Below, one piece after another: positions 1 to 50,613 of a stretch of DNA of 50,613 nt. This DNA comes from a virus. The stretch is from the IMG/VR virus record IMGVR_UViG_3300045993_000450; one strand, 5' to 3'. Positions within the stretch are counted from its first letter, which is position 1. Every line of letters starts with the position of its first letter. Made by a program: the position numbers and the translations under genes. The notes beneath the pieces were generated by a model. That model saw nothing but the letters and a program-made list of their open reading frames with translations, did not search any database and was not told the DNA's origin.

Positions 1-104
1 GTGCGAAGTATTTGGGATGAGTGCGAAGTATTTGGGATGAGTGCGAAGTATTTGGGATGAGTGCGAAGTATTTGGGATGAGTGCGAAGTATTTGGGATGA
101 GTGC
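1..104. repeat. Terminal tandem array: 5 copies of the 20-bp unit GTGCGAAGTATTTGGGATGA plus GTGC, identical to 50510..50613
   Basis: Read directly: units start at 1, 21, 41, 61 and 81. The same 104 nt end the window. Confidence 0.95.
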
Positions 105-1924: not shown

Positions 1925-2401
1925 GTGCGAACTATACCTGGGTACACTAATCTATATTCTCTCGACGATGATGGTCGAGTGTATAGTCATGTATCCGGGA
2001 TTTATCTAAAACCAGTGGTGAATCGTCGTGGTTATCTATACGTCGGTCTACGCAAGAATGGAAAAACCACCAACTTCTTTATTCATAGACTAGTGATGAC
2101 AATACTAAAGGGTCAAGTTATTCCGGAAAATATGGAAGTAGACCACGAAGACAAAAACAAACAGAACAATCGTCCTGACAATCTGAGAATTCTGAGTCAT
2201 AGAGATAATACTCTACACCATCACAATCGTTTAGGTGCAGATACGGAAACCCAAAAATTTTGCTGTACTTGCAAGAAGTTAAAGTCCAGAACGGTGTTCG
2301 GATTTCAGGCGAGTTCAACAGATAAGCTAGATGGCTCGTGCAAACCATGCATGAGAGTATATAAAAGTCAACCTAAAATAGGAGAATCATCGTGCCTGTA
2401 A
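1925..2401 (+). CDS. HNH homing endonuclease (NUMOD4/HNH_3-like)
   Basis: 158 aa, GTG start. IPGYTNLYSLDDDGRVYS N-terminus, EVDHEDKNKQNNRPDNLRILSHRDN core, C-terminal CCTC...CKPC cysteines. Paralogous to 36346..36813. Confidence 0.85.
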   Translation: MRTIPGYTNLYSLDDDGRVYSHVSGIYLKPVVNRRGYLYVGLRKNGKTTNFFIHRLVMTILKGQVIPENMEVDHEDKNKQNNRPDNLRILSHRDNTLHHHNRLGADTETQKFCCTCKKLKSRTVFGFQASSTDKLDGSCKPCMRVYKSQPKIGESSCL

Positions 2402-3768
2402 GCTCAGAACACCCAGAGTACAAAGATCGCAAAGAGGATTGGGAAAAGTGTAGGGATGCCTTTGAGGGGCAAGGTGCGATTAAGCATGCAGGTACGAAAT
2501 ACCTTCCCAAGTTGTCGGAACAAACTAATGAGGATTATCAGGCCTACAAGACGCGTGCGTTATTTTATTCGATAACTAGCAAGACCATCTCCGCGTTGGT
2601 AGGTATGGCCACGACAAAGCATCCTGTCATGAAATACCCGGAGGAATTAAAACCCTATTTTGAAGATAACAGCGGGGTGCAATTTCATGAGTTACTTTCG
2701 GCTTCGTTGTCTGAGAATCTTCTCATGGGTAGGTATGGAGTGCTGGTTGATCGGCCAGTCGAGGGGGGTCCACCTACTATCGCCGGATATACTGCTGAGA
2801 ACGTTCTTAACTGGCGGACAGATACCCAAGGGAACCCAGTCTTGGTGGTGTTGAGGGAAAACGTCATTGAGCAAGATGAAGAGGATGAGTTTATCTTGGA
2901 GTCTTATACCCGGTATCGCGTGTTGAGACTAGTAAACGGCGTTTACACTCAGTTTATATACGATGACGACGATAAACTAGTAGGTCCGCCCATCGTACCG
3001 ACTAATTTAGGTCAGACCATGGACTATATACCTTTTTACATGGTGAACCCTTATGGTATCGGATTTGACATGTCCAAACCGCCGGTCCTGGACATCGTGG
3101 ACATCAATATCTCTCACTATAGGACTAGCGCTGATTTGGAACATGGTCGCCATTACACTGGCCTACCTGTTCCTGTCGTCTCTGGAGTTGATAGTTCCAC
3201 TAAACTACGTATTGGGTCCATGGTAGCATGGGTACTTCCGGACGTGCACGCGAAGGCGTACTATCTAGAATTCACAGGTCAAGGACTAGTGAGTCTGGAA
3301 AAGGCTTTGTCTGAGAAACAAAGTCAGCTGGCTAGTTTGTCGGCTAGACTTATTGGTCAGAGTTCTAATGGCTCCGAGGCTGCGGACACTGTGCGTCTGC
3401 GTTATATGTCTGAGACCGCGTCACTGGCTGCTGTAGTGAGAGCTGTCGAGGCTTTATTGAATAAAGTTTATCGTTGTCTAGCTAAAATGGATGGGTTAGA
3501 CCCCACCACAGTGATGATCACGATGGACAAAGAGTTTCTGGACAATAGATTGTCTGGGGCGAATTTGCGTGAGATCGTCAGGGCTTACCTAGATGGCGGT
3601 CTTAGCAAAGAGACGCTGGTGTACAACCTGCGTCGGGGCGACGTTATTTCTCCGGATCGCACAGATTCAGAGGAAACTAAAGCCTTGGATGATGTGAAAG
3701 CAGAGATGATGAAGACGGCCGCTAGTAGCGCGCCAAAACCTGTAAACCAACCTGGAGTTAAATCATGA
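2392..3768 (+). CDS. Portal protein
   Basis: 458 aa. GTG start preceded by AGGAG. Size and position after terL fit a portal. The N-terminal W..C/RD..G....AG.KYLP pattern resembles DUF4055-type portals (from memory, not searched). Confidence 0.75.
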   Translation: MPVSSEHPEYKDRKEDWEKCRDAFEGQGAIKHAGTKYLPKLSEQTNEDYQAYKTRALFYSITSKTISALVGMATTKHPVMKYPEELKPYFEDNSGVQFHELLSASLSENLLMGRYGVLVDRPVEGGPPTIAGYTAENVLNWRTDTQGNPVLVVLRENVIEQDEEDEFILESYTRYRVLRLVNGVYTQFIYDDDDKLVGPPIVPTNLGQTMDYIPFYMVNPYGIGFDMSKPPVLDIVDINISHYRTSADLEHGRHYTGLPVPVVSGVDSSTKLRIGSMVAWVLPDVHAKAYYLEFTGQGLVSLEKALSEKQSQLASLSARLIGQSSNGSEAADTVRLRYMSETASLAAVVRAVEALLNKVYRCLAKMDGLDPTTVMITMDKEFLDNRLSGANLREIVRAYLDGGLSKETLVYNLRRGDVISPDRTDSEETKALDDVKAEMMKTAASSAPKPVNQPGVKS

Positions 3769-4640: not shown

Positions 4641-5564
4641 ATGGCCTCAGTTACCCTAGCCGAATCGGCAAAACTCTCGCAAGACCTGCTCTTGACCGGC
4701 ATCATCGAAAGCATCGTGACGGTCAATCCGATCTACGAAGTACTTCCATTCATGGAAATCGACGGCAACGCTCTAAGCTACAACCGCGAAAATGTGAACG
4801 GCGATGTGCAATTCCTCGGTGTCGGTGGTACTATCACAGCGAAAGCTGCTGCCACCTTCACTCAAGTCACATCTAGCCTGACCACTTTGCTGGGTGACGC
4901 AGAAATTAACGGTCTGATCGAAGCCACCCGTTCTGACAAACAAAGTCAGACGGGTGCTCAGGTCTCTTCCAAGGCCAAATCACTGGCTCGTCAGTACCAA
5001 GACACCATGATCAATGGTGACGGCACTTCCAACACCTTCACCGGTCTGGGTGCTCTGGTTCCTGCAGGTCAGAAAATCAATGCAGGTGCTGCGGCTGGTT
5101 CCAATCTGTCATTCGACATTCTGGACCAGTTGATTGACACGGTCAAGGACAAAGACGGTCAAGTGGACTACATGATGATGCCTTCACGCACTCGTCGTTC
5201 GTTGTTTGCCCTTCTGCGTGGTTTGGGTGGCGCGGATATTGGTGAAGTCATGACTCTACCGTCTGGTCGTAATGTGCCGGTTTACCGCGGTGTTCCGATC
5301 TTCGTCAATGACTGGATCGCCACCAACCAAACTCAAGGTTCTTCGTCTGGCATTTGCACCACAGTGTATGCTGGCACCTTTGATGATGGTTCTGGTAAGC
5401 ATGGTATCTCTGGTCTGACAGCTCGTGGTGCCGCAGGTGTCCGCGTTGAGAATGTTGGTACCAAAGAGACTGCGGATGAAAAAATCATCCGTATCAAGTT
5501 CTACTGCGGTTTTGCCAACTTCTCTCAGTTGGGCATCGCAGCTGCCCCTGGTATCCTGAATTAA
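4641..5564 (+). CDS. Major capsid protein (HK97 fold)
   Basis: 307 aa. RBS GGAGAAACATATG. N-terminal ...EVLPFMEIDGNALSYNRE... resembles HK97-type capsid proteins. Position follows the scaffold gene, and a hairpin follows the stop codon. Confidence 0.8.
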   Translation: MASVTLAESAKLSQDLLLTGIIESIVTVNPIYEVLPFMEIDGNALSYNRENVNGDVQFLGVGGTITAKAAATFTQVTSSLTTLLGDAEINGLIEATRSDKQSQTGAQVSSKAKSLARQYQDTMINGDGTSNTFTGLGALVPAGQKINAGAAAGSNLSFDILDQLIDTVKDKDGQVDYMMMPSRTRRSLFALLRGLGGADIGEVMTLPSGRNVPVYRGVPIFVNDWIATNQTQGSSSGICTTVYAGTFDDGSGKHGISGLTARGAAGVRVENVGTKETADEKIIRIKFYCGFANFSQLGIAAAPGILN

Positions 5565-5626: not shown

Positions 5627-5869
5627 ATGTATACAAAAGCGATTTTCACCCTGCCATCAGCTCCTGATGGTGAGTTCATTCTCAATAATCGTTATCGTTT
5701 TATTGATAAGAAACTTGAGACAGACGTCGATACGGCAAAACTGATCGAACTGATTCTAGTGCCATACTACGGTTGCACTGTAGAATGGGTGGATAACAAA
5801 CTTGAGACTCTTGTCCCTTCAGTTGATAAACCTACTCTGGCTAAAGTTGAAACCGCTAAGGCTAAATAA
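5627..5869 (+). CDS. Hypothetical protein (head module)
   Basis: 80-aa ORF between the capsid and connector genes. Its stop overlaps the next start (TAATG). Confidence 0.5.
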   Translation: MYTKAIFTLPSAPDGEFILNNRYRFIDKKLETDVDTAKLIELILVPYYGCTVEWVDNKLETLVPSVDKPTLAKVETAKAK

Positions 5870-6414
5870 TGGCCTTAATCGCTACCCCCGGCGGAACGAC
5901 CTCTAACAGTTACTGTACGGTCGCTGAGGCTAGCAATTACTTTGGAAATAGTGTAGGCAAAACACTATGGGAAACAACTGAATTTCAAGACGTGTCTCTA
6001 ATAGAGGCTACACGTTTATTAGATACTCTAGTGACCTGGAACGGTTATATTGCCTCTGAGTCACAACGTCTACGTTGGCCTAGAATGTGGGTTCCAAAAC
6101 CTGATGTCTATCCATACGTAAGCGCTACTACAGACGTGGGTGTCGGAGGCCCGTATCTTCCCAACGACGTAATCCCAGAACCCATCAAAGACATTGTCTG
6201 CGAATTGGCTTACAGTCTTATTTCCACTGGGGGTTTCCAAATGGAGGAAAACCCAGTGACATTGGTTCGTGTAGGAACGTTGCAAGTCAGATTCGCAGAG
6301 AAAGTCAAAAGTTACGGTTTACCCCTTATGGTTAGAAGTATGATTGCTCCTTGGGGATCCTACTCTCTAGAGTCTAGTAATGATGTTAGACAAGTCGGGG
6401 TGGTAAGAGTATGA
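5869..6414 (+). CDS. Head-tail connector/adaptor (gp6/SPP1 gp15-like)
   Basis: 181 aa. NSYCTVAEASNYF...W......EATRLLDTL..W.G......Q.LRWPR pattern is typical of head-tail adaptor proteins (from memory). Gene order supports it. Confidence 0.6.
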   Translation: MALIATPGGTTSNSYCTVAEASNYFGNSVGKTLWETTEFQDVSLIEATRLLDTLVTWNGYIASESQRLRWPRMWVPKPDVYPYVSATTDVGVGGPYLPNDVIPEPIKDIVCELAYSLISTGGFQMEENPVTLVRVGTLQVRFAEKVKSYGLPLMVRSMIAPWGSYSLESSNDVRQVGVVRV

Positions 6415-7640: not shown

Positions 7641-8597
7641 ATGGCTAATCTTGGAACATCTAATCGTACCGCTCTACGGTACGTACCCGAAGTAACTTTC
7701 GGAACCACTCCGGCAACTCCGGCTCTTACAGATATTCGTTACACTGGCGAATCTCTTAACTATGCCGTGAAAACGGTTCAAAGCACCGAAATTCGATCAG
7801 ACCGCAATATCGCGGATCTGGTTCGAGTCGGCGCGGACGTCTCAGGAGATATTCAGTTCGAATTATCGTTCCTGTCATTCGAGGTATTTCTCGAAGCAGT
7901 TATGGCTAGTTCTTTTAGTGCCCCGGTAGCTAACGCCTCTACCATGAAAAACGGAACGGTCTTGAAATCGTTCACGATTCAGAAACATTACCAAGATCTA
8001 GCTGTCCCTGTATATCAGAACTTTATTGGGGTGCGTGCTGGCGCCCTTAATCTGGATTTCAAGACCGGAGCAATTCTCACCGGTTCTCTGACCCTGATGG
8101 GTTTATCTTGTTCTGTCAGCACGACACAGATTGTGGGGGCTACAACTCCAGCGAATCCAGGGGTAGCCGAAGAAATCATGAACGCCGTAACAGACGTGAT
8201 TGAAATCAAGGAAAACGGTGCGGCTACCACGATGGTGATAAACTCTCTGTCTGTCAACATTAATAATAACCTGCGGGCTCAGGACGCGATTGGTTCTTTC
8301 GGCCATATCGGTGTAGCACTGGGTAAGATGGACGTGACTGGTAACATCGAAGCTTACTTCACTGATTTGACGGCGTATAACCGTTTCGTGAACGGCACTG
8401 CTTTTGCTTTGTCATTCAAAGTACAGGACGCAACTACTGACAGTTACACCTTCATCTTCCCCAAGGTTAAGTTCGAAACCGCTACGGTCGTATCTGGCGG
8501 TTTGGATCAAGACATTATGATGAAGGGTACTTGGAGAGCTCTGTATGACACAGCCACTTCTTGCACTGTCCAGATCGACAAATACAACACTCCCTAA
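7641..8597 (+). CDS. Major tail (tube) protein
   Basis: 318 aa, immediately upstream of the chaperone/tape-measure pair. Canonical siphovirus gene order. Confidence 0.65.
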   Translation: MANLGTSNRTALRYVPEVTFGTTPATPALTDIRYTGESLNYAVKTVQSTEIRSDRNIADLVRVGADVSGDIQFELSFLSFEVFLEAVMASSFSAPVANASTMKNGTVLKSFTIQKHYQDLAVPVYQNFIGVRAGALNLDFKTGAILTGSLTLMGLSCSVSTTQIVGATTPANPGVAEEIMNAVTDVIEIKENGAATTMVINSLSVNINNNLRAQDAIGSFGHIGVALGKMDVTGNIEAYFTDLTAYNRFVNGTAFALSFKVQDATTDSYTFIFPKVKFETATVVSGGLDQDIMMKGTWRALYDTATSCTVQIDKYNTP

Positions 8598-21535: not shown

Positions 21536-22258
21536 ATGCAACCGCAAATTATTTCAAGTTTTCAGCCTGGCGAACATTGTGCTGATCTAAATAGAACAGT
21601 TACCCGCTTAAAGAAAGAGGCGGGGTACAAAGATCTGTCCTGCATTTGGGTTACACCTGCGTTTGGTCAGATTCCCACCAAGACCGTTGCAAGCTGGCTC
21701 AATGTGTTTACACCGCCCAATGGGAAGTTCGTTAGGCTGTTCGCGGTAGGTATGGAAGTTGGTGAGGCATTCAGCACCACGATCAAAAACATAGTTGATC
21801 ATCCTGAATTGTCTAAATTCAAGTACATCATTACCGTCGAACATGATAACCTGCCCCCTCCTGACGGCATCGTGAGATTACTGTCGCGGATGGAGGCCAA
21901 CCCTGAGTACGCTTGTATTGGGGGTTTGTACTTCACCAAAGGCCCAGGCGGTGCCGCACAAATCTGGGGCGATGTGAAAGACCCTGTGTTGAACTTTCGA
22001 CCTCAGTTACCGGACCCCAATGGGGGTCTAGTTGAATGCTGTGGTACTGGTATGGGATTCAATGCATGGCGTGTTGATATGTTCAAAGACCCAAAGATCG
22101 CACGTCCCTGGTTCCGCACAAAGGCTAGCGCCTCCGAAGGTGTAGGTACACAGGACTTGGCTTTCTGGTCAGAAGCTCGTAAGCACGGTTATCGCTGTGC
22201 TGTCGACTGTTCAGTGAAGGTGGGTCACTATGATCTCGCCGCTGATTTTGTTTGGTAG
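21536..22258 (+). CDS. Glycosyltransferase (GT-A/GT2-like, putative)
   Basis: 240 aa. IITVEHDN (DxD-like) and GTQDLAFWSEARKHGY, reminiscent of the GEDxxFCxRAxxxG motif of GT2 enzymes. Motif-level evidence only. Confidence 0.5.
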   Translation: MQPQIISSFQPGEHCADLNRTVTRLKKEAGYKDLSCIWVTPAFGQIPTKTVASWLNVFTPPNGKFVRLFAVGMEVGEAFSTTIKNIVDHPELSKFKYIITVEHDNLPPPDGIVRLLSRMEANPEYACIGGLYFTKGPGGAAQIWGDVKDPVLNFRPQLPDPNGGLVECCGTGMGFNAWRVDMFKDPKIARPWFRTKASASEGVGTQDLAFWSEARKHGYRCAVDCSVKVGHYDLAADFVW

Positions 22259-22842
22259 AAAGAAACATGGCGACTAACAAAAAGCTGAAACTCGTCCCGG
22301 TAGTTGCGCCTACCAAGCTCGATCTTGGCTGCGGTTCAAAGAAACGTGAGGGTTTTCATGGTGTCGATCAGTACGCGATGGACGGGGTTGATACGGTCCT
22401 TAAAATCGGCACTGCTTCATGGCCGTTTGAGGATTCCTCTATTGAAGAGGCGTACAGTTCTCATTTTGTGGAGCATCTTACGGCACAAGAGCGCATTCAC
22501 TTTTTCAATGAGTTGCATCGTGTGCTCAAGCCAGGGGGCAAGGCTACCATCGTTACCCCTCATTGGGCTAGCAACCGTGCCTACGGTGACCCGACGCACC
22601 AATGGCCGCCTATTTCGGAGATGAGTTTCTACTACCTGTCACGTGAGTGGAGGGAGACCCAAGCTCCTCATACTGATATTAAGTGGAACAAGGACGGGTT
22701 TAGTTGCCATTTTAGCGCAACATGGGGTTATAGTTTTTCCCCTGAGTTGGCCGCACGCAACCAAGAGTACGTGCAGTTTGCTTTGGCGAACTACAAAGAC
22801 GCGGCCCAAGACTTACACGCTACACTTGTCAAAGTGGAGTAA
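22252..22842 (+). CDS. Class I SAM-dependent methyltransferase
   Basis: 196 aa. Motif I LDLGCGSKKREGFHGVD and the LKPGGKATIV motif. Confidence 0.75.
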   Translation: MVERNMATNKKLKLVPVVAPTKLDLGCGSKKREGFHGVDQYAMDGVDTVLKIGTASWPFEDSSIEEAYSSHFVEHLTAQERIHFFNELHRVLKPGGKATIVTPHWASNRAYGDPTHQWPPISEMSFYYLSREWRETQAPHTDIKWNKDGFSCHFSATWGYSFSPELAARNQEYVQFALANYKDAAQDLHATLVKVE

Positions 22843-27120: not shown

Positions 27121-28190
27121 AAGTCCTCATCTCTCCAGCACTTAGCGCTGGCATGAAAGGGCAAGCCCTCGATTGTTAATTCACTGTATTCCACAGTTAG
27201 CATGCGACCAATGTATTCCACTTTGTTCACCAGAGCGTCCCGTTTTTCTGCGTGGCTACCTGGAGCCGACGTGCGAAATATCTTGCCATTTTCTGCAAGG
27301 CATACGCAAATCCCCCAACCGTCTGCGCTAGGTTCCACATCGATGCACTTGAATTCAGCATCGTGAAAGTGTTTGACCTTCAACAACCCTGAACTGCGTT
27401 TACCGACCTCATATCCTCTGTTGTCTAGCCTCAACATGAGACCTTCGAACCCTGCACTTCGCACTTTGTTCATTTGGTCGTACATCAAAGGTGAACTGAC
27501 ATAGGGGTTATATGGAAGCACTAGTGTCTTGCCAAATACTTGAGTCTCGACGTCTTTAAGGATACCTGACAGTTCCTTATGTCTATCAACGTAGTCGTCC
27601 ATAGCTATGATGTCATAACACACAAAGCTTAACTTCGCTGTGTTAGGTTGCTTAGCCTTAATCCATGAAGCCAAGGTTTGTAATGGCACACCGTGACAGT
27701 AGAGTTCCCCATCAAGTGTATCGCCCTCAGGCAATCTATGTTTCAAGGCATCTAAAACGTGAGTGATGCTGGTTATGGGCTTACCTTGGCGGGAGTACGC
27801 AATGATCTCACCATCTTGTCTGGTGATGAGACATCTGTGGCCGTTGAGCTTCTTCTGTAGCACGGCTCCTTTGTAGTTCACCTGCTTAACCTTGTCGATG
27901 GACTGGGCCAACATAGGTCTTGCCAAACCCATCTGGTTAGAGCCACTGACTTCGGCTTCAGCAACAGTGTCTTTATAACCTTTATCCCTCATCCTGGAGA
28001 TGCGAGAGTTGATTCTGGAGTTGATCTGCTGTGCAAGAGAGCGACCGGCTAACCCAGCAGGTACTAACTCTTTGTGGAAAACTTCAGAGCCACCAATCGT
28101 CGTTGCATGAGCAATGAGAATAATCGACCCTTCGTTCCATATCCTCCAGGTACCCACGCTGTTAGCATGCATACGATAAAGGTATTTCAT
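27117..28190 (-). CDS. lig: ATP-dependent DNA ligase
   Basis: 357 aa. Motif I KLNGHR, motif IV FEGLMLR, motif V LLKVK. Confidence 0.85.
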   Translation of the reverse strand: MKYLYRMHANSVGTWRIWNEGSIILIAHATTIGGSEVFHKELVPAGLAGRSLAQQINSRINSRISRMRDKGYKDTVAEAEVSGSNQMGLARPMLAQSIDKVKQVNYKGAVLQKKLNGHRCLITRQDGEIIAYSRQGKPITSITHVLDALKHRLPEGDTLDGELYCHGVPLQTLASWIKAKQPNTAKLSFVCYDIIAMDDYVDRHKELSGILKDVETQVFGKTLVLPYNPYVSSPLMYDQMNKVRSAGFEGLMLRLDNRGYEVGKRSSGLLKVKHFHDAEFKCIDVEPSADGWGICVCLAENGKIFRTSAPGSHAEKRDALVNKVEYIGRMLTVEYSELTIEGLPFHASAKCWRDEDL

Positions 28191-28474
28191 TGCACCCGCT
28201 CCATAAGAGCGATGTACCCTGCCGTATCTACCATCGAGTCATGGTGCGTCGGGTTATGTAACAACCTAGCCTGCTTAACAGAGACCATCATCTGGCACAC
28301 ATCGTCGGTAGTGATCTCGCCGTTGAAGTTGTATTTGTGCTTAAGATGCACTGTCCAGTAATCAGCGATAGCTCGCAGATTGCGACCAGGGTCACCATAT
28401 GTTTCTTCACGATCACCGTAAATAACAGACTCAGCCTCTTGCAAGAGGTTATCGAACGCCTTTTTGATAGCCAT
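28187..28474 (-). CDS. Conserved phage protein of unknown function
   Basis: 95 aa. GDREETYGDPGRNLRAIADYW pattern is common in phage nucleotide-metabolism neighbourhoods (from memory). 4-nt overlap with the ligase gene. Confidence 0.5.
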   Translation of the reverse strand: MAIKKAFDNLLQEAESVIYGDREETYGDPGRNLRAIADYWTVHLKHKYNFNGEITTDDVCQMMVSVKQARLLHNPTHHDSMVDTAGYIALMERVQ

Positions 28475-28498
28475 ATAAATTCCTTCTGTGATGAATAA

Positions 28499-28580
28499 TG
28501 CTCTGATCAGTCTTATTTTTAAGTACGTATGCTAATACGTTTTTAACTTTCAGAGCGTTTCAGAGCGCGATGGGAGCGCT
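28499..28580 (-). repeat. E element copy E3 (subtype II, no CCAATAGCA core)
   Basis: TGCTCTGATCAG ... TTCAGAGCGTTTCAGAGCGCGATGGGAGCGCT. Internal ACGTAT-GCTA-ATACGT palindrome. Closest in layout to 41763..41852. Confidence 0.7.
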
Positions 28581-28584
28581 GGAA

Positions 28585-29055
28585 CTACACATTTCTAATT
28601 AACAATAGGCCTAAGTTAGAAAACTTAAACCATTCCCTACCTGCACGGGTCCAGAGCTCTTTTGCCTCTGGGTGCGGATATTCTTCAATAAACACTATGC
28701 GTTGGCACGACGTGTTTAGCAATAACTTCGTGCAGGTTATGCACGACGATGCGGTGCAGTATGCCGTATGGATACTCCACACATCACGGCACTGGAGCAA
28801 AGCGTTTTGTTCTGCGTGAATTGCTTCACAGAGATTAAGCCCCTCGCCCGATGGCAGACCAACCCCTGCACAAGGATGTTCCTGGCAGTTAGGTTGCCCA
28901 GAGGCTGGACCATTGTATCCTGTGGCCAAGACATGATTACGCTGATTGGTCAGTATGCAGCCAACCTTACGACGACTACAAGAGGCCCGGCTAGATGCCA
29001 AGACAGCCATAGACATGAAGTAAGTATCGATGTCTGGTCTCATGATACAAGCCAC
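28585..29055 (-). CDS. dCMP deaminase
   Basis: 156 aa. HAEQNAL zinc/catalytic motif and a SSCITCTKLL (CxxC) motif. Confidence 0.9.
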   Translation of the reverse strand: MACIMRPDIDTYFMSMAVLASSRASCSRRKVGCILTNQRNHVLATGYNGPASGQPNCQEHPCAGVGLPSGEGLNLCEAIHAEQNALLQCRDVWSIHTAYCTASSCITCTKLLLNTSCQRIVFIEEYPHPEAKELWTRAGREWFKFSNLGLLLIRNV

Positions 29056-29855
29056 TTTCCAAGTTCACCAGTGTTGGACATGTCTTTTCCACGACTAGCT
29101 ATGATTTTCAATGCCTCAATCGAGGTGCAAAACGGCATCTCAACTTCTTCGTACCCATCAGGTCCTGCACGTAAAATATCCGCCACCATCTCGAAGTGAC
29201 GCTCATATATGTGACTAGACATCGCGGTGATAGTCATATTTCCGCAAGCCAAGTAATGGTGTTCGGCTTGCAGGACCCCAAAAACTAGACGATACAGGAA
29301 GGCGAACGTAGGGATGTCGGTACCTAAACCAAAGATCTGGTCGCTAGACCGCATGTGAATAGACATATTCAGTTCGCCATTGCGGATACGAAAACCGACA
29401 CTCTCCGTACACACAGTATCCACCGTTTCCGGCTTCATGTGCTCTTTGCTGAGCATAGGAATCACTGCCCTGCGACTATCTTTGTCCCGTAACAATTCCA
29501 TGACCACAGACCAGAACCCTTGTTGTTCACCGAACCAGAATTGGCCGTAGTTGCTATTGAAGGTCCCATCAGGATTCTGCACTGACTCCCACATCTTCGC
29601 ATGTTGCTTAATGCTTTGGTCATATTTGTTGGCCGTCAACTTCCACAGCATTTCCTTCTTGAAATACTCGAAGTTATATTTACGATCTATGAAGGCCATA
29701 AATGGAAACAGAGGACTGACAGTTAACTGCAAGTCCTCTACTTCTGCGATGGTAAACCCTCTGGGTTTTACCAGGTGACCGTGAGACATTGTCTTGTCAA
29801 ACATCTCCAGGAAAGCCACTCTGTTCTGGTTAGCTAAGAGATCCATTTCTTCCAT
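29040..29855 (-). CDS. ThyA-family pyrimidine nucleotide C5-(hydroxy)methyltransferase, probably dCMP-specific
   Basis: 271 aa. EMLWKL, DSRRAV, catalytic Cys149 (DTVCTES), MRSSDQIFGLGTDIP. These align without gaps to E. coli ThyA QRSCDVFLGLPFNIA, placing Asp180 at the Asn177 position. Confidence 0.8.
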   Translation of the reverse strand: MEEMDLLANQNRVAFLEMFDKTMSHGHLVKPRGFTIAEVEDLQLTVSPLFPFMAFIDRKYNFEYFKKEMLWKLTANKYDQSIKQHAKMWESVQNPDGTFNSNYGQFWFGEQQGFWSVVMELLRDKDSRRAVIPMLSKEHMKPETVDTVCTESVGFRIRNGELNMSIHMRSSDQIFGLGTDIPTFAFLYRLVFGVLQAEHHYLACGNMTITAMSSHIYERHFEMVADILRAGPDGYEEVEMPFCTSIEALKIIASRGKDMSNTGELGKWLVS

Positions 29856-30346
29856 GCTCCTAAGTTGAACGCCATATCCATAGCCCGCTCGATTACAGAC
29901 TCGTCTGGCGTAATGTAATTATACACCAAGTGAGGTGTACTTCTAAACAATTGATCGTAGGACTCGATGTAATTGTGACCATTCAATTTGATGTTGGCCA
30001 AGGCTTCAGCCGTATCGTATGGCTTAACCTCATGACTATCGAGTTTCAATATGACATTTCGTGGTGGGCGACAGTAGATGATCACACAGCATTTTGTGAA
30101 AACCATCCTGTCTAAGTACGACATGTAGGCATGGTCAAATAAACGACCCTTGTAAACCTGTGAGGAAATACATGTGACCCTGTCCATGACGATAGGATTA
30201 CGGCACTCACGTAGTTGGTTGTCCAGGCAATTTTGCTCCTCGCCCCACGTTTTGGGGCGAGGTCCTGGGTGCACTATCTCTAGTCCAAACTTCTTCGCCA
30301 ACGTGGATTTTCCGGAATTATCCATGCCTTCCAGGATGATAGCCAT
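29834..30346 (-). CDS. dNMP (thymidylate-like) kinase
   Basis: 170 aa. P-loop ILEGMDNSGKSTLAKKFG is typical of Tmk-family kinases. Confidence 0.7.
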   Translation of the reverse strand: MAIILEGMDNSGKSTLAKKFGLEIVHPGPRPKTWGEEQNCLDNQLRECRNPIVMDRVTCISSQVYKGRLFDHAYMSYLDRMVFTKCCVIIYCRPPRNVILKLDSHEVKPYDTAEALANIKLNGHNYIESYDQLFRSTPHLVYNYITPDESVIERAMDMAFNLGAWKKWIS

Positions 30347-30738
30347 TATGACTCCAGGATTTCACCAATGCGGTGTTCAGGAGGAACCCAGCCTTCAGGC
30401 TTGATAGCGTCAGCGGCGGAGCCGTCACCACGACTAGCTTTAACACCAAGCTTTTTCTCCATATTGGCTTCATGGACCGCGGTGCAGCAACGGTTGATCT
30501 GGTCAGCTGTCATGCCCAGTTTGTACAGAGCGCCCATGGCGAAGTACTGCAGGTCAATCAAGGCATCGATCTGCCCAATGTAGTCAGCAGCTTGTGAAGC
30601 TTCAATGAATTCATCGACCTCTTCTCTGAGACACTTGACAGTGATCTCAAATTCGGGGAAAGACAGAGGGCATTGAATCCTTGGATGGATTTTGAGGACT
30701 TGTTGATTGAAGTCAATAACCTGGTGAGCGAAAGTCAT
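30346..30738 (-). CDS. MazG/HisE-like nucleoside triphosphate pyrophosphohydrolase
   Basis: 130 aa. LREEVDEFIEA ... DALIDLQYF acidic helices of all-alpha NTP pyrophosphatases. Its start shares a base with the kinase stop. Confidence 0.7.
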   Translation of the reverse strand: MTFAHQVIDFNQQVLKIHPRIQCPLSFPEFEITVKCLREEVDEFIEASQAADYIGQIDALIDLQYFAMGALYKLGMTADQINRCCTAVHEANMEKKLGVKASRGDGSAADAIKPEGWVPPEHRIGEILES

Positions 30739-30739
30739 T

Positions 30740-32362
30740 TTAGTTCCTTATGATGAAAGTACGAAAGTCTCTGCCTGGAGCCACAGCCCTCTGCTTAGTG
30801 TGAGTACCCTTGATTTGAGATTCACCCAAAACAATAGGCACGCCGTGGAAGTTGTAACTCGTATTGATCAGTGGACCGAACGCGTTCACAAGAGCTAATA
30901 AATGTGGATCGTCCGTGATTTGCGGTCTGCATGTATGCACTCGCAAATCTGGATAATAATGTGCACCGCCAAACAGGTCACTTTCTTTGCCTGGTCTGAA
31001 ATCGCGGGTACAGATCATATATCCCAATGACTTATGGATCTTGCTTACATCGATAAACAAATCTACGGCCTGCTCTGCACTCATGACGAGTGCGAAGGGC
31101 ATCTCATTAGTGCGGTCATTAATCTCATTGATGGTCTCACCAATAGATGAGTAAGGCAAAGCCAATGTGGTGGTATTACATAAAGCACGAGGGCCGAATT
31201 CCATCGCACCTCGCACGATATTAACAAAACCGATCTCACTCAGTTCGTCGACTATAGGACCCATGGCGGTATCCAGGTCTTCAAACGAAACCATCTGTAT
31301 ATCGTCACATGCGAAGTTCAAATCACGATGCCCCCAGAACAAGTGTTCAGGCCACTCAAGATCACCGAAGTATCGCTGATAAACACCAAGCCCGCAACCT
31401 TGATCACCCGCTAACGGCATGATACAAGTCTTTTCAGGTGTGAGTTTTGCCAAGATACTGTTTAACTTCACATTGTAGAACAGGCCGCCCACTAACAACA
31501 GGTTCGTGGGCGCAAAGTTATGGAAAATAGTAACCATCACTTCCTCAACCACATGTTGTACAAAGTAAGAGATGATGCAGCGCTTGTCGTGAACTGATGC
31601 CCCGCTGGCGTCCATTTCAATGAGGACTCTCTGCAACAAGACATCTATACGGGCTTGCGTCTCTGTCAGTGCAGTGGCCATCAATAATGGGTCTGTCTCT
31701 TTATCGATCTTGCTGTGGAAGATATTGTCGACCCATACCTTTGCTGTATCAAGGACGATACTGTTCAGTTTAAGGACATTATACCCCAGTTTATGCAGGT
31801 GCACCTCGTAGGCCAACATCTTGTATTCATGGTTGTGCATCTTCATGCCCAAGAATGCTGTGGCATATTGATATAATAGGCCTAATGATTTTTCAAATCC
31901 GAACCAGCGGTTAAGCAGTCTATAACTACCTCGATGAACTTCATAAACAGAGATGCACTCGCCTGACGAGCCGAACCCGTCGGCCACAATGGCGGTATAT
32001 GTGTTGGCGAAATCGTCCCCCGCAAAAACCACGGCTGATTCGAGGTGACTGTCGTGATGACTGAATTCACGATCAAGTGAGAGTACTTCACAATGTGGCA
32101 TCAGTTTGACCAGAAAATCAGGATCCCAGTACTTATTAGGCTTAGGAAGATCATGATCCAGAAACCAATGACCGACGCACACGCTCGTGTCAGAAGGCAG
32201 AGGAAATCGTTTATTGATCTCATTGATAGCGTCAGTAGGGAAATGTGAATCGGACTTCACAGTAGAGAATCGCTCTTGTTCGTACCCACAAATGACTTGA
32301 CCGTCAACGATGAGTACTGCAGAGCTATTGTGACCTAGAGTCAGGGCCAATGCTGTTGTCAT
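30740..32362 (-). CDS. Carbamoyltransferase (NodU/CmcH/TobZ family)
   Basis: 540 aa. N-terminal LTLGHNSSAVLIVDGQVICGYEQERF (Kae1/ASKHA-like). C-terminal MEFGPRALCN ... NTSYNFHGVPIV (YrdC-like carbamoyl-adenylate domain). Confidence 0.85.
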   Translation of the reverse strand: MTTALALTLGHNSSAVLIVDGQVICGYEQERFSTVKSDSHFPTDAINEINKRFPLPSDTSVCVGHWFLDHDLPKPNKYWDPDFLVKLMPHCEVLSLDREFSHHDSHLESAVVFAGDDFANTYTAIVADGFGSSGECISVYEVHRGSYRLLNRWFGFEKSLGLLYQYATAFLGMKMHNHEYKMLAYEVHLHKLGYNVLKLNSIVLDTAKVWVDNIFHSKIDKETDPLLMATALTETQARIDVLLQRVLIEMDASGASVHDKRCIISYFVQHVVEEVMVTIFHNFAPTNLLLVGGLFYNVKLNSILAKLTPEKTCIMPLAGDQGCGLGVYQRYFGDLEWPEHLFWGHRDLNFACDDIQMVSFEDLDTAMGPIVDELSEIGFVNIVRGAMEFGPRALCNTTTLALPYSSIGETINEINDRTNEMPFALVMSAEQAVDLFIDVSKIHKSLGYMICTRDFRPGKESDLFGGAHYYPDLRVHTCRPQITDDPHLLALVNAFGPLINTSYNFHGVPIVLGESQIKGTHTKQRAVAPGRDFRTFIIRN

Positions 32363-32377
32363 TTTTATTCCAGTAAT

Positions 32378-32397
32378 GATGGGGCCGAAGCCCCATC
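32378..32397 (-). other. GC-rich hairpin with a UUCG tetraloop (GAUGGGGC-UUCG-GCCCCAUC) directly after the 32405 gene
   Basis: Perfect 8-bp stem. The T-run (GTTTGTTTT) is on the + strand side only. On the - strand it is more likely an mRNA stabiliser or processing site. Confidence 0.5.
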
Positions 32398-32404
32398 GTT
32401 TGTT

Positions 32405-33241
32405 TTACCATTTACCCAGTACGTCGTCCACACCCTTGTTAGAGGTGGATTTTGTGTCAGCAATCGTGGCGTCCACAGTCTGCGTTGCTTCTTTGACAGA
32501 AGGCAAAGCTTTTGGCTTTTCACGAGCATCTTCCAGCAAAGGAGCTGCGGATGCGCTGCCAATGTTCCAGTCACGAGCAATGTTGCGATCAAGAGCAGAC
32601 TTGCCCGTTTTCTCATCCAAGAAGCCGAGCATCTCGAATTCCAACATTGGGAACTCAGAATCTTCCATTGTGATTTGAGTAATCACAGCAGAAATCGGGT
32701 ACCCATTGGTTTTCAATTCACGGCCATACTCAGACACATTCTTCAGAGAAGTAACCGGGATGCCCATAGCAAACACAGTACCGTCGATGTCTTCAGGCAA
32801 GGCCAACCAAACACGTTTGCTGTCACGACAAGCTTTTGATTTCTTGCCAGAACGAGAAGTGGCGGAGCCGAACTGATTCTTAGGACATGTCTGACAACGC
32901 TGCGCTTGTGGGGTGGTCACCCAACCATCAGGCGCAATACCATCAGAACTGGCACACGTAGGCGGAGAACTGTCACCACTGTTGTAAGTACCCTCGTAGA
33001 AGGTCTTGATAAACAAACCAGCGCCGGGCTCCACAGCCAAGATCACTGCATTCAGTTCATCGGACGGTTTACGAATCTCTTCACCCCCTTCCACCAAACG
33101 GAACTTGCGGCCACGCAAAGAGACACGTGGGATGGAGATGCTGCTTGAGGCAAGACTGTCTGCTTCAGCATTCGCACCTTGACTAGCCATGAAGGCCTTC
33201 AGATACTCTGGTATTGCTACCGCCGTAGTTTTATCTGTCAT
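32405..33241 (-). CDS. Hypothetical DNA-metabolism protein with a Cys cluster (possible ssDNA-binding/annealing protein)
   Basis: 278 aa. PPTCASSDG...QRCQTCPKNQFGS...KACRDS cysteines and an acidic-to-basic C-terminal tail. It occupies the SSB/recombinase slot of the replication module. Function not established. Confidence 0.35.
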   Translation of the reverse strand: MTDKTTAVAIPEYLKAFMASQGANAEADSLASSSISIPRVSLRGRKFRLVEGGEEIRKPSDELNAVILAVEPGAGLFIKTFYEGTYNSGDSSPPTCASSDGIAPDGWVTTPQAQRCQTCPKNQFGSATSRSGKKSKACRDSKRVWLALPEDIDGTVFAMGIPVTSLKNVSEYGRELKTNGYPISAVITQITMEDSEFPMLEFEMLGFLDEKTGKSALDRNIARDWNIGSASAAPLLEDAREKPKALPSVKEATQTVDATIADTKSTSNKGVDDVLGKW

Positions 33242-33297: not shown

Positions 33298-33717
33298 TTA
33301 CGATTTGGTAGGACGACGGACGTCCATCTCAACCTCAGCCACATAATCAAGGCCAGGAGGGATGATACCGGTACCGTCGTGAATTTCTTTGGTGGCCAGT
33401 TTAGCGACCCGCTTTTCTAGACACTGGAAGTTGCCTGTGTCCTTGATCCAACCAATGAATGAATCCCAACCACCTGTTGCAACACGGTAACTAGTCTTCA
33501 CACTGCGGAATGCTGTGCCATACTGATTTGACTTGAAGCTGTCGACCCCCAATTCGTCGGCCTTATCACGCAGCCACATGGAGATCTGTTCGAGTACAGT
33601 CTTGAGGGCTGTCTCTTCTTCTTTGAAAGCGTGTTGACGTGCACGCAAATCGTCACGAGTTTCAACGTAGGCTTTGATGGCTTCGTCAATACTGGAGAAG
33701 TTGGGTTTTTCTAACAT
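33298..33717 (-). CDS. Hypothetical coiled-coil protein (replication/recombination module)
   Basis: 139-aa ORF between the SNF2 helicase and the Cys-cluster protein. Confidence 0.5.
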   Translation of the reverse strand: MLEKPNFSSIDEAIKAYVETRDDLRARQHAFKEEETALKTVLEQISMWLRDKADELGVDSFKSNQYGTAFRSVKTSYRVATGGWDSFIGWIKDTGNFQCLEKRVAKLATKEIHDGTGIIPPGLDYVAEVEMDVRRPTKS

Positions 33718-36345: not shown

Positions 36346-36813
36346 TTATTTTACAGGTTGAGTAATTCTTCGTTTCTGGACATATGCCGACCAGCAAGAC
36401 TTACAGTATGAGTTAAGTCCGCCGGACTTCCTTTGTCCAAAGCTAGATGTGGAAATAAGAAGGTTACACATCCTGCAGCGTTTAACTTCGTCATTATCTT
36501 GCTGATTTAGGGCCTTCTCTCTAGACTTTAGATTCTCTGATTGAGTGCATAGCCTCAAATTACTCACGGCATTGTTGGTTTTGACCATGTCTAAATGATC
36601 TACCTGCGTACTGGAGTCAGACAAATCGAGACCTAAAAAGGAGGCGGCCATTAGTCTATGCACATAAAGTGTAGTAGGATATTCTTCGCCTTCTTTATAT
36701 AGTCCTACAGTATCATATCCTCCGTAATTTCCAGGCTTTAGAAATCTTCCTCTAAGTCCCTTTATACGACTAGATTCAAAAATTTCGTATCGCTCATATC
36801 CAGGTATCTTCAC
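36346..36813 (-). CDS. HNH homing endonuclease (NUMOD4/HNH_3-like), second copy
   Basis: 155 aa. MKIPGYERYEI, VDHLDMVKTNNAVSNLRLCTQSEN, C-terminal CRMC...CKSC. 4-nt overlap with the DNA polymerase stop. Confidence 0.85.
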   Translation of the reverse strand: MKIPGYERYEIFESSRIKGLRGRFLKPGNYGGYDTVGLYKEGEEYPTTLYVHRLMAASFLGLDLSDSSTQVDHLDMVKTNNAVSNLRLCTQSENLKSREKALNQQDNDEVKRCRMCNLLISTSSFGQRKSGGLNSYCKSCWSAYVQKRRITQPVK

Positions 36814-50509: not shown

Positions 50510-50613
50510 GTGCGAAGTATTTGGGATGAGTGCGAAGTATTTGGGATGAGTGCGAAGTATTTGGGATGAGTGCGAAGTATTTGGGATGAGTGCGAAGTAT
50601 TTGGGATGAGTGC
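50510..50613. repeat. Terminal tandem array, exact duplicate of 1..104
   Basis: Five GTGCGAAGTATTTGGGATGA units plus GTGC. Confidence 0.95.

Follow-up and report, generated by a model that had tools for sequence, protein, structure and literature searches.

A phage replication-module gene cluster predicted to replace cytosine with 5-carbamoyloxymethylcytosine, a further example of the 5-hydroxymethylcytosine carbamoyltransferase system

Introduction

The virus record IMGVR_UViG_3300045993_000450 of IMG/VR comprises 50,613 nucleotides, and this whole stretch is referred to here as the window. At positions 28187-32362 it carries a cluster of six genes in which a carbamoyltransferase (CT) of the TobZ/NodU type stands next to a ThyA-family enzyme, a MazG-like hydrolase, a nucleotide kinase homologue and a dCMP deaminase. 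The locus raises the question which base such a phage would modify, with which group, and whether the pathway is new. An initial annotation of the DNA had read the cluster as a candidate novel pathway that carbamoylates 5-hydroxymethyl-dC or -dU. The analysis described here points to a pathway that probably replaces the cytosine of virion DNA with 5-carbamoyloxymethylcytosine (5cmdC). Judged by sequence and by every test run, the cluster is a member of the known 5-hydroxymethylcytosine (5hmC) carbamoyltransferase/5cmdC system, and is a new example of it, not a new system. The novelty claimed earlier was therefore given up: enzyme, modification and gene association had already been described by Yang et al. 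2021 (eLife 10:e70021, PMC8670742).

Results

The 540-residue CT was assigned by family, full-length similarity and phylogeny. Carbam_trans_N (PF02543, 5e-17) and Carbam_trans_C (PF16861, 7e-18) were both found over their gathering scores, in an architecture of a Kae1/ASKHA-like N-terminal and a YrdC-like C-terminal domain, and PHROG 1601 was matched at 2e-66. BLASTP alignment to the characterised 5hmC carbamoyltransferase (PMC8670742) gave 38% identity (E = 2e-108, residues 5-540 versus 4-554). The nearest solved structures (7xb6, GdmN, the novobiocin enzyme and TobZ) reached only 1e-9 to 1e-14, and in the NCBIfam scan the protein stayed far under the cut-off of the NodU model. A 10-sequence alignment including the characterised enzyme showed as invariant H102/H103/H106, D128-G131, A318-G322 (including D320), E388-R392 and N500-P509 (point by point, E388-G390-P391-R392 and N500-T501-S502-N504), with the metal- and nucleotide-binding motifs HHxxH, DGFG, AGDQG, EFGPRAL and NTSxNxHGxP. 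In a neighbour-joining tree of 82 sequences, the characterised CT nested in the clade that contains the CTs of the window and of Xanthomonas phage Xp15. Its closest relative among the fetched viral loci (numbered L001 and onwards) was found at L052 (49% identity), and this locus shows the full synteny of the window.

The characterised enzyme comes from a metagenomic screen that sought phage contigs with cytosines resistant to enzymatic selection (PMC8670742). Carbamoyltransferase domains were among the strongest associations with cytosine-modified contigs there, and the pairing of CT with thymidylate synthase (TS) was confined to modified contigs. Co-occurrence ranked highest for thymidylate synthase, PRA-PH, the zinc-binding region of dCMP deaminase and MafB19 deaminase; residues W408, G421 and R423 (TobZ numbering) were linked to the modified phenotype. 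Supplied with ATP and carbamoyl phosphate, the purified CT converted 5-hydroxymethyl-dC to 5-carbamoyloxymethyl-dC in single-stranded DNA, at nearly 100% on oligonucleotides. Activity was several-fold weaker on double-stranded DNA and lower on RNA, about 60% of 5-hydroxymethyl-dCTP was converted, and 5-hydroxymethyl-CTP was also modified. The enzyme was inactive on 5-methyl-dCTP and 5-hydroxymethyl-dUTP, and had no sequence-context preference (PMC8670742). The proposal that a TobZ/NodU-type enzyme O-carbamoylates a 5-hydroxymethyl pyrimidine is thus borne out by a homologue (38% identity) with that activity. For the N-carbamoylated base offered earlier as an alternative, no support was found.

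The ThyA homologue (29040-29855) was used to decide which base is concerned. Pfam Thymidylat_synt was matched at E = 2.4e-17, and the top PDB match was the dCMP hydroxymethylase of T4 (1b5d, 3e-17), with canonical thymidylate synthases at 1e-8 or worse. Tblastn against 50,697 deposited phages returned, outside the protein's own lineage, mostly T-even dCMP hydroxymethylases. Active-site residues were compared by their positions in E. coli ThyA (Ec numbering). The catalytic set is present (C149 for Ec C146, E68 for Ec Glu58, Y103 for Ec Tyr94, R169 for Ec Arg166), with T150 after the catalytic Cys. Asp is kept at Ec D169 (D172). D180 occupies Ec N177 (T4 D179), where SSDQIFGLGTD aligned gap-free to T4 SNDVVFGFRND, and D146 occupies Ec L143 (T4 D145, Cys minus 3; V-D-T-V-C versus T4 S-D-F-M-C). 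The MAFFT column of Ec L143 was one residue off (V145); the position was placed by ungapped HMMER alignment to the T4 enzyme and the Cys-minus-3 rule.

According to Lee et al. 2026 (PMC13326640), Ec N177D marks dCMP as substrate. Asp or Glu at Ec L143, as found in T4 gp42 and MilA, lets water in, and hydration turns the exocyclic methylene into hydroxymethyl; Ec D169N marks newly described 5-hydroxy-dCMP synthases (PMC13326640). The L143 position matters because Asp at N177 alone also occurs in Xp12-type 5-methyl-dCMP synthases. The window protein has the full signature of a T4-type 5-hydroxymethyl-dCMP synthase, and its residues suggest the reaction dCMP to 5-hydroxymethyl-dCMP. Given Asp at both Ec N177 and Ec L143, the alternative of dC or dU is therefore settled in favour of cytosine; the dC half of the earlier proposal stands, and the dU half fell also with the inactivity of the homologous CT on 5-hydroxymethyl-dUTP. 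In the fetched loci, 91 CT-linked ThyA homologues all have Asp at the L143 and N177 positions, except for two extra canonical TS paralogues (L011 and L015).

Recurrence of the cluster in other viruses was examined at nucleotide and protein level. The exact CT protein of the window was found on JGI and Logan metagenome contigs, with an identical neighbourhood. A megablast search of deposited phages with the cluster matched only one 112-bp piece of Xp15, and relatives needed protein-level searches. In this way, CT was found in 13 records of deposited phages: two of Xp15 (55% identity), four of the Acinetobacter phages Effie, HHU4 and MD-2021a (about 46%), six Bacteroides fragilis phages (about 34%) and one cyanophage (25%), the last with no ThyA neighbour. 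Xp15 (NC_007024, deposited 2005) has the order ligase, deaminase, TS homologue, kinase homologue, hydrolase, CT, p278, p139 and helicase, as in the window, and the cluster of phage Effie (L012) is ordered in the same way. The Xp15 kinase homologue gp37 (YP_239305; L001/L008) is annotated as 'putative DNA polymerase subunit', which is an annotation error. Xp15 and the Acinetobacter phages are the nearest cultured relatives, with 58% and 53% identity in PolA.

At least 144 CT relatives were found in IMG/VR, and 78 loci were fetched. Co-occurrence was counted with iterated profiles in 80 non-redundant viral CT loci, up to 6 kb from CT (Table 1). A search of gene neighbourhoods had been suggested as a check, and it returned a ThyA homologue in 73 of the 80 loci; several of the seven others end at a contig edge. 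About 31 loci show the order CT-MazG-kinase-ThyA, in most cases with the deaminase next. Because the same order is shared by this many independent viral loci, the arrangement is non-random. It also persists in lineages without p278, p139 and the ligase flank, so that the nucleotide module appears to move as a unit and the flanks to be lineage synteny. From these sequences, the conserved core is CT plus a T4-type dCMP hydroxymethylase, and the accessory module consists of MazG, Tmk-like kinase and deaminase.

Table 1. Features of the cluster and of its upstream flank, with the number of viral CT loci that carry a homologue near CT.
Feature	Coordinates	Strand	Assignment	Basis	Loci (of 80)
CT	30740..32362	-	5-hydroxymethylcytosine O-carbamoyltransferase homologue, 540 aa, TobZ/NodU architecture	Pfam, PHROG, BLASTP, neighbour-joining tree	
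MazG-like protein	30346..30738	-	MazG/PRA-PH-type all-alpha nucleoside triphosphate (NTP) pyrophosphohydrolase; putative dCTPase/dUTPase, cf. T4 gp56	Pfam, PHROG, PDB	31
Kinase	29834..30346	-	P-loop nucleotide kinase, Tmk/YorR/deoxynucleoside-kinase-like fold; putative 5-hydroxymethyl-dCMP kinase	Walker A, PHROG, AlphaFold (AF2) and Foldseek	38
ThyA homologue	29040..29855	-	ThyA-family dCMP hydroxymethylase (5-hydroxymethyl-dCMP synthase) homologue	Pfam, PDB match, residue signature	73
Deaminase	28585..29055	-	dCMP deaminase; predicted to supply dUMP to host thymidylate synthase	Pfam, PHROG, PDB	46
DUF6378 protein	28187..28474	-	Small four-helix protein; pathway membership unsupported	Pfam, AF2	8
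p278	32405-33241		Cys-rich 278-aa protein, directly upstream of CT	PHROG families of unknown function	
p139	33298-33717		139-aa protein, upstream of CT	PHROG label 'minor head protein', though in replication module	

Five of the six proteins scored above curated Pfam thresholds (DUF6378, dCMP_cyt_deam_1, Thymidylat_synt, PRA-PH, and Carbam_trans_N plus Carbam_trans_C). Accordingly, the earlier family calls were kept as solid for deaminase, ThyA, MazG and CT, and that of the kinase is backed mainly by its predicted fold. The kinase contains the Walker A motif GMDNSGKST and matched PHROG 761 ('thymidylate kinase', 5e-11). It had no match in Pfam, including Thymidylate_kin, failed the DTMP_kinase threshold of NCBIfam (TIGR00041, 18.9 bits versus a cut-off of 83) and aligned there over the P-loop only. 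An AF2 model was built from an alignment of 44 homologues (predicted local distance difference test score, pLDDT, 94.5). Foldseek placed YorR (3kb2) and the thymidylate kinases 4s35, 4dwj and 5x7j on top (E about 1e-5, template modelling (TM) score 0.5-0.6, probability 1.0). Deoxynucleoside kinases (dAK) were also matched with probability 1.0 and TM 0.5-0.6; the dNMP kinase gp1 of T4 (1dek/1del) was absent from the top 50 matches. Since the curated family thresholds were failed, the protein was classed as Tmk-like by fold and not as Tmk. The model thus describes a Tmk-like P-loop nucleotide kinase outside the curated Tmk family and unlike T4 gp1.

The MazG-like protein matched PF01503 PRA-PH at 4e-10 (40.3 bits versus a cut-off of 21.3) and the PHROG nucleotide pyrophosphohydrolase at 6e-20. 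Its PDB matches ranged from 2e-6 to 5e-6 and comprised the MazG-like NTP pyrophosphatase DR2231 (best, 2e-6) and 3nl9. The gene directly follows CT in about 31 loci. For the deaminase, PF00383 dCMP_cyt_deam_1 (E = 3.9e-19, 68.9 bits) and PHROG 174 (4e-41) were matched, with the dCMP deaminases 2hvv, 4p9c and T4 1vq2 as top PDB matches. The zinc-ligand motifs HAE (HAEQNAL) and CxxC (CITC) are both present. The true start is likely the ATG at 29043 (152 aa), as in metagenome gene calls. Published work shows that the in-cis 'dCMP deaminases' encoded by cytosine-modified phages can show selectivity for 5-methylcytosine (5mC) or 5hmC and act on dNTPs or single-stranded DNA; in the same study, all seven enzymes that deaminate 5-hydroxymethyl-dC were linked to 5-methyl-dCMP-type synthases.

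Pfam and NCBIfam scans, which covered 32 of the 64 open reading frames (ORFs) of the window, revealed no second thymidylate synthase and no ThyX; the window ORFs were not searched with E. coli ThyA, so the exclusion is incomplete. Only five of the other 32 ORFs are even roughly TS-sized: the portal (2392-3768), major head (4641-5564) and minor tail (7641-8597) genes, the three smallest of those compared with PHROGs only, which received structural labels, and two ORFs outside any scan (5869-6414, 181 aa; 22252-22842, 196 aa). As no such enzyme was found in the window, reliance on host ThyA for dTMP is implied. In two related phages, a canonical thymidylate synthase (Leu143, His147, Asn177) lies just downstream of the cluster (L011:9981-10880 and L015:4717-5565).

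All six ORFs lie co-oriented on the minus strand, and the ORF calls agree with the packed arrangement and the coordinates first reported. In the order of transcription, CT and MazG are 1 base apart, MazG and kinase overlap by 1 base and kinase and ThyA by 22 bases. ThyA and deaminase overlap by 16 bases with the GTG start at 29055 and abut with the in-frame ATG start at 29043. A 110-base gap separates deaminase and DUF6378, and DUF6378 overlaps the ligase gene by 4 bases. CT, ThyA homologue, PRA-PH and dCMP deaminase genes are all contained in 3.8 kb. The motifs quoted earlier (HAEQNAL, CITC, Cys149, EGMDNSGKST, GHNSSAVLIVDG..EQERF, EFGPRAL and NTSYNFHGVPIV) were all recovered in the translations. 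Replication genes flank the cluster on both sides, with DNA ligase and an Rv2179c-type exonuclease on one and SNF2 helicase, PD-(D/E)XK nuclease, HNH endonuclease, family A DNA polymerase and PrimPol on the other. The cluster is part of the replication module, as had been noted.

Terminase, portal, major head, tape measure and M15 peptidase genes were found elsewhere in the window. Because window 1-104 and 50510-50613 are identical (104 bases at both ends), the window was taken as a complete siphovirus-type phage genome of about 50.5 kb that was circularly assembled or is terminally redundant. A promoter and terminator scan of the cluster gave promoter-like sites at chance level and no convincing intrinsic terminator on the coding strand, and a tRNA search of the window gave none. 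An 11-bp GC-rich hairpin (AATGATGGGGCCGAAGCCCCATCGTT, window 32375-32400) occupies most of the 42-bp gap between p278 and the CT start; it is terminator-like by scan on the plus strand only. An HNH_3 endonuclease gene (36346-36813) lies between the family A DNA polymerase and PD-(D/E)XK nuclease genes. A homing-type insertion is one possible origin; alternatively, the gene may encode a nuclease against unmodified DNA.

The DUF6378 protein had been grouped with the pathway genes. It is adjacent to them and matched its family clearly (Pfam E = 2.8e-26), but homologues occur in only 8 of the 80 loci, and all except that of L079 belong to the clade of the window and Xp15. The AF2 model is a four-helix bundle (pLDDT 88) with no fold match in the PDB by Foldseek (best E = 1.2), and hhalign against the MazG family gave a probability of 0.14%. 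On these three grounds (fold, profile and distribution), a role as cryptic MazG-like NTP pyrophosphatase or as pathway component was rejected. The label 'phosphofructokinase' of PHROGs 474 and 1167, families with DUF6378, was likewise given no backing by fold and profile. DUF6378 appears in published papers on phages of Klebsiella, Brucella and Faecalibacterium; nothing relevant to its function was found in the literature searched. The head-protein label of p139 is probably a misannotation. Only Xp15-like lineages have p278 and p139 together with the cluster (23-24 of the 80 loci). They were rejected as pathway members since they are missing in L015, L048, L078 and L081-L084, which keep CT-MazG-kinase-ThyA with or without the deaminase.

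Gene content differs at other CT loci. A Bacteroides-phage-like CT clade comprises L047, L050, L051, L059, L062, L063, L064, L070, L072, L073, L076, L077 and L080. Here, a ThyA-like paralogue lies immediately 3' of CT (e.g. L051:8442-9203) and has Asn at Ec D169 (..QMRSSNFITLLPYD..), the diagnostic proposed for 5-hydroxy-dCMP synthases. The same paralogues carry Met, Leu or Ile for Glu58 and fall under the Pfam gathering threshold. In most of these loci, a second, shorter ThyA paralogue of the T4 type ('DDD') follows 1.5-3 kb further on. Some CTs might act on 5-hydroxycytosine, or Bacteroides-like phages might make two modified cytosines. Bacteroides-type loci have an AAA_28 P-loop protein in place of the Tmk-like kinase and a dUTPase-fold protein in place of MazG; examples are L013 (Bacteroides phage BF503P2, OP172671; 9450-10259 and 12288-13013) and L051 (7778-8458 and 9473-10117). 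The accessory functions thus seem to be filled by non-homologous proteins in these loci. Two ThyA paralogues are encoded by the cultured phage BF503P2 itself, and Leu replaces Glu58 in the first of them. In another five loci (L040, L044, L045, L053 and L054), the CTs form a subclade of their own and a ThyA homologue 5' of CT has Glu at Ec D169 (RSNELHFGFRTD). Four of the five have Gln at Glu58; the L040 sequence ends before that position.

Discussion

The following pathway is proposed. The MazG-like hydrolase would take dCTP (and dUTP) down to the monophosphate. The ThyA homologue, to judge by its complete active-site signature, would convert dCMP to 5-hydroxymethyl-dCMP with methylene-tetrahydrofolate, and the Tmk-like kinase together with host nucleoside diphosphate kinase would raise the product to 5-hydroxymethyl-dCTP for incorporation by the phage family A polymerase. 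CT would then form carbamoyl-AMP from carbamoyl phosphate and ATP and transfer the carbamoyl group to the 5-hydroxymethyl oxygen. The transfer was shown for the 38%-identical homologue (on single-stranded DNA, less on double-stranded DNA, and on 5-hydroxymethyl-dCTP), and the carbamoyl-adenylate is assumed by analogy with TobZ (Parthier et al. 2012, as cited in PMC8670742). The dCMP deaminase would divert some dCMP to dUMP, from which host thymidylate synthase would make dTMP. Only family, fold and position place hydrolase, kinase, polymerase and deaminase in this scheme. The phage would probably gain resistance to restriction that depends on cytosine.

Carbamoylation could instead precede replication and act on 5-hydroxymethyl-dCMP or 5-hydroxymethyl-dCTP, with kinase, MazG and polymerase then handling the carbamoylated nucleotide. 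The homologous CT modifies both nucleotide and DNA in vitro (PMC8670742), and this order of events is considered rather unlikely. If it held, 5cmdC would be a pre-replicative hypermodification, unlike the usual post-replicative transfer onto 5hmC or 5-hydroxymethyluracil in DNA. In a sub-variant, the in-cis deaminase would act on the modified nucleotide and give a second non-canonical pyrimidine.

Several points weigh against the proposal of 5cmdC in virion DNA. The product of the ThyA homologue, the substrates of kinase and MazG and the acceptor of CT are all deduced from homology and residue signatures. Asp at N177 by itself is found in Xp12-type 5-methyl-dCMP synthases as well, and the L143D rule that separates hydroxymethylase from methylase is a published correlation, not proof. 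An identity of 38% does not guarantee the same acceptor specificity. The role of the deaminase is uncertain, since such enzymes can use modified dNTPs or single-stranded DNA and not dCMP. The literature searched contained no paper that demonstrates 5cmdC in virion DNA from a cultured phage.

The alternative that survives best is that 5hmC DNA is made, with carbamoylation being partial, conditional or directed elsewhere (nucleotides, RNA or a further-processed base); virion DNA would then not end up with 5cmdC alone. The broad activity of the homologous CT on RNA, 5-hydroxymethyl-CTP and 5-hydroxymethyl-dCTP and its several-fold weaker activity on double-stranded DNA would fit this, as would the conserved DUF6378 and several unannotated small ORFs close by, and the literature searched included no native virion analysis. 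It is nevertheless improbable: among the ORFs scanned there was no further transferase or tailoring enzyme, and contigs with the CT and TS pair acted as fully cytosine-modified in the MetaGPA selection (PMC8670742).

Alternatively, the ThyA homologue might be an Xp12-type dCMP methyltransferase that yields 5mC, and the acceptor of CT a sugar, a metabolite or a host envelope component. Many deaminase-linked TS homologues of modified contigs were reported to produce 5-methyl-dCMP, which Asp at Ec N177 cannot separate from 5-hydroxymethyl-dCMP synthases, and there are cyanophage CTs without any ThyA neighbour. This reading is very improbable in view of Asp146 at Ec L143, which is shared with T4 gp42 and MilA and replaces a bulky hydrophobic residue, and of the T4 hydroxymethylase as best PDB match. 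The CT, moreover, groups with a 5hmC-specific enzyme that is itself inactive on 5-methyl-dCTP, and CT-ThyA linkage is near-universal.

A uracil or thymine target was also considered, in which the deaminase would supply dUMP, the ThyA homologue would make 5-hydroxymethyl-dUMP and CT would yield 5-carbamoyloxymethyl-uracil. The dCMP deaminase gene adjoins that of the ThyA homologue, and SPO1-type phages, which use the logic dUMP to 5-hydroxymethyl-dUMP, give a precedent. With Asp180 in place of Asn at Ec N177, Thr in place of His after the catalytic Cys, and a characterised CT homologue that is inactive on 5-hydroxymethyl-dUTP, such a target is highly improbable. That the acceptor is 5-hydroxycytosine, giving 5-carbamoyloxy-cytosine, is extremely unlikely: D169N-marked TS homologues that make 5-hydroxy-dCMP exist (PMC13326640) and such a paralogue is present at some other CT loci, but the only ThyA homologue of the window keeps Asp172 at the D169 position.

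The proposal of 5cmdC by way of 5-hydroxymethyl-dCMP is thus retained as probable. The modification has so far, in the literature searched, been shown enzymatically and inferred from metagenomic selection; its presence in virion DNA was only predicted by Yang et al. (PMC8670742). Because the cluster or CT occurs in cultured phages, native modification, its completeness and its timing are directly testable. Xp15 and Effie carry this cluster with its gene order unchanged; HHU4, MD-2021a and several Bacteroides fragilis phages are further cultured carriers of CT, with gene sets that differ in some. For Xp15 and Effie, the literature searched offered no analysis of DNA modification. The initial annotation had deduced the chemistry correctly from raw sequence, which indicates that the cluster is recognisable.

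Compared with the carbamoyltransferases of secondary metabolism (TobZ, NodU, CmcH and GdmN), the CT has the same Kae1-like plus YrdC-like architecture, the conserved motifs and, presumably, the carbamoyl-AMP chemistry. It is distant from them (E = 1e-9 to 1e-14), and it is predicted to act on a nucleotide or on a nucleobase in DNA, whereas they act on an antibiotic or Nod factor. With the 5hmC pathway of T4 (gp42, gp1, gp56, cd and the alpha/beta-glucosyltransferases), the cluster shares the pool-level logic, a deaminase, an NTP pyrophosphatase and a ThyA homologue with the active-site signature of gp42, its top PDB match. It differs from T4 in its predicted carbamoyl decoration (glucose in T4), in a Tmk/YorR-like kinase for which gp1 was outside the top 50 folds and in a pyrophosphatase that is DR2231/PRA-PH-like. 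No phage thymidylate synthase turned up in the window ORFs scanned (32 of 64 by Pfam and NCBIfam), and the genome is of 50 kb and siphovirus type, in contrast to the T-even myoviruses. Xp15 and the Acinetobacter phages differ in that their genes carry only generic or wrong annotations.

The closest known system is that of Yang et al. 2021. The window phage is more Xp15-like and substantially diverged in sequence; its cluster includes a Tmk-like kinase, which is not among the top co-occurring domains of that study. Both have the two-domain enzyme, with full-length identity of 38% and a common clade, both have as neighbours a TS homologue with Asp at N177, PRA-PH/MazG and dCMP deaminase, and the predicted product is the same.

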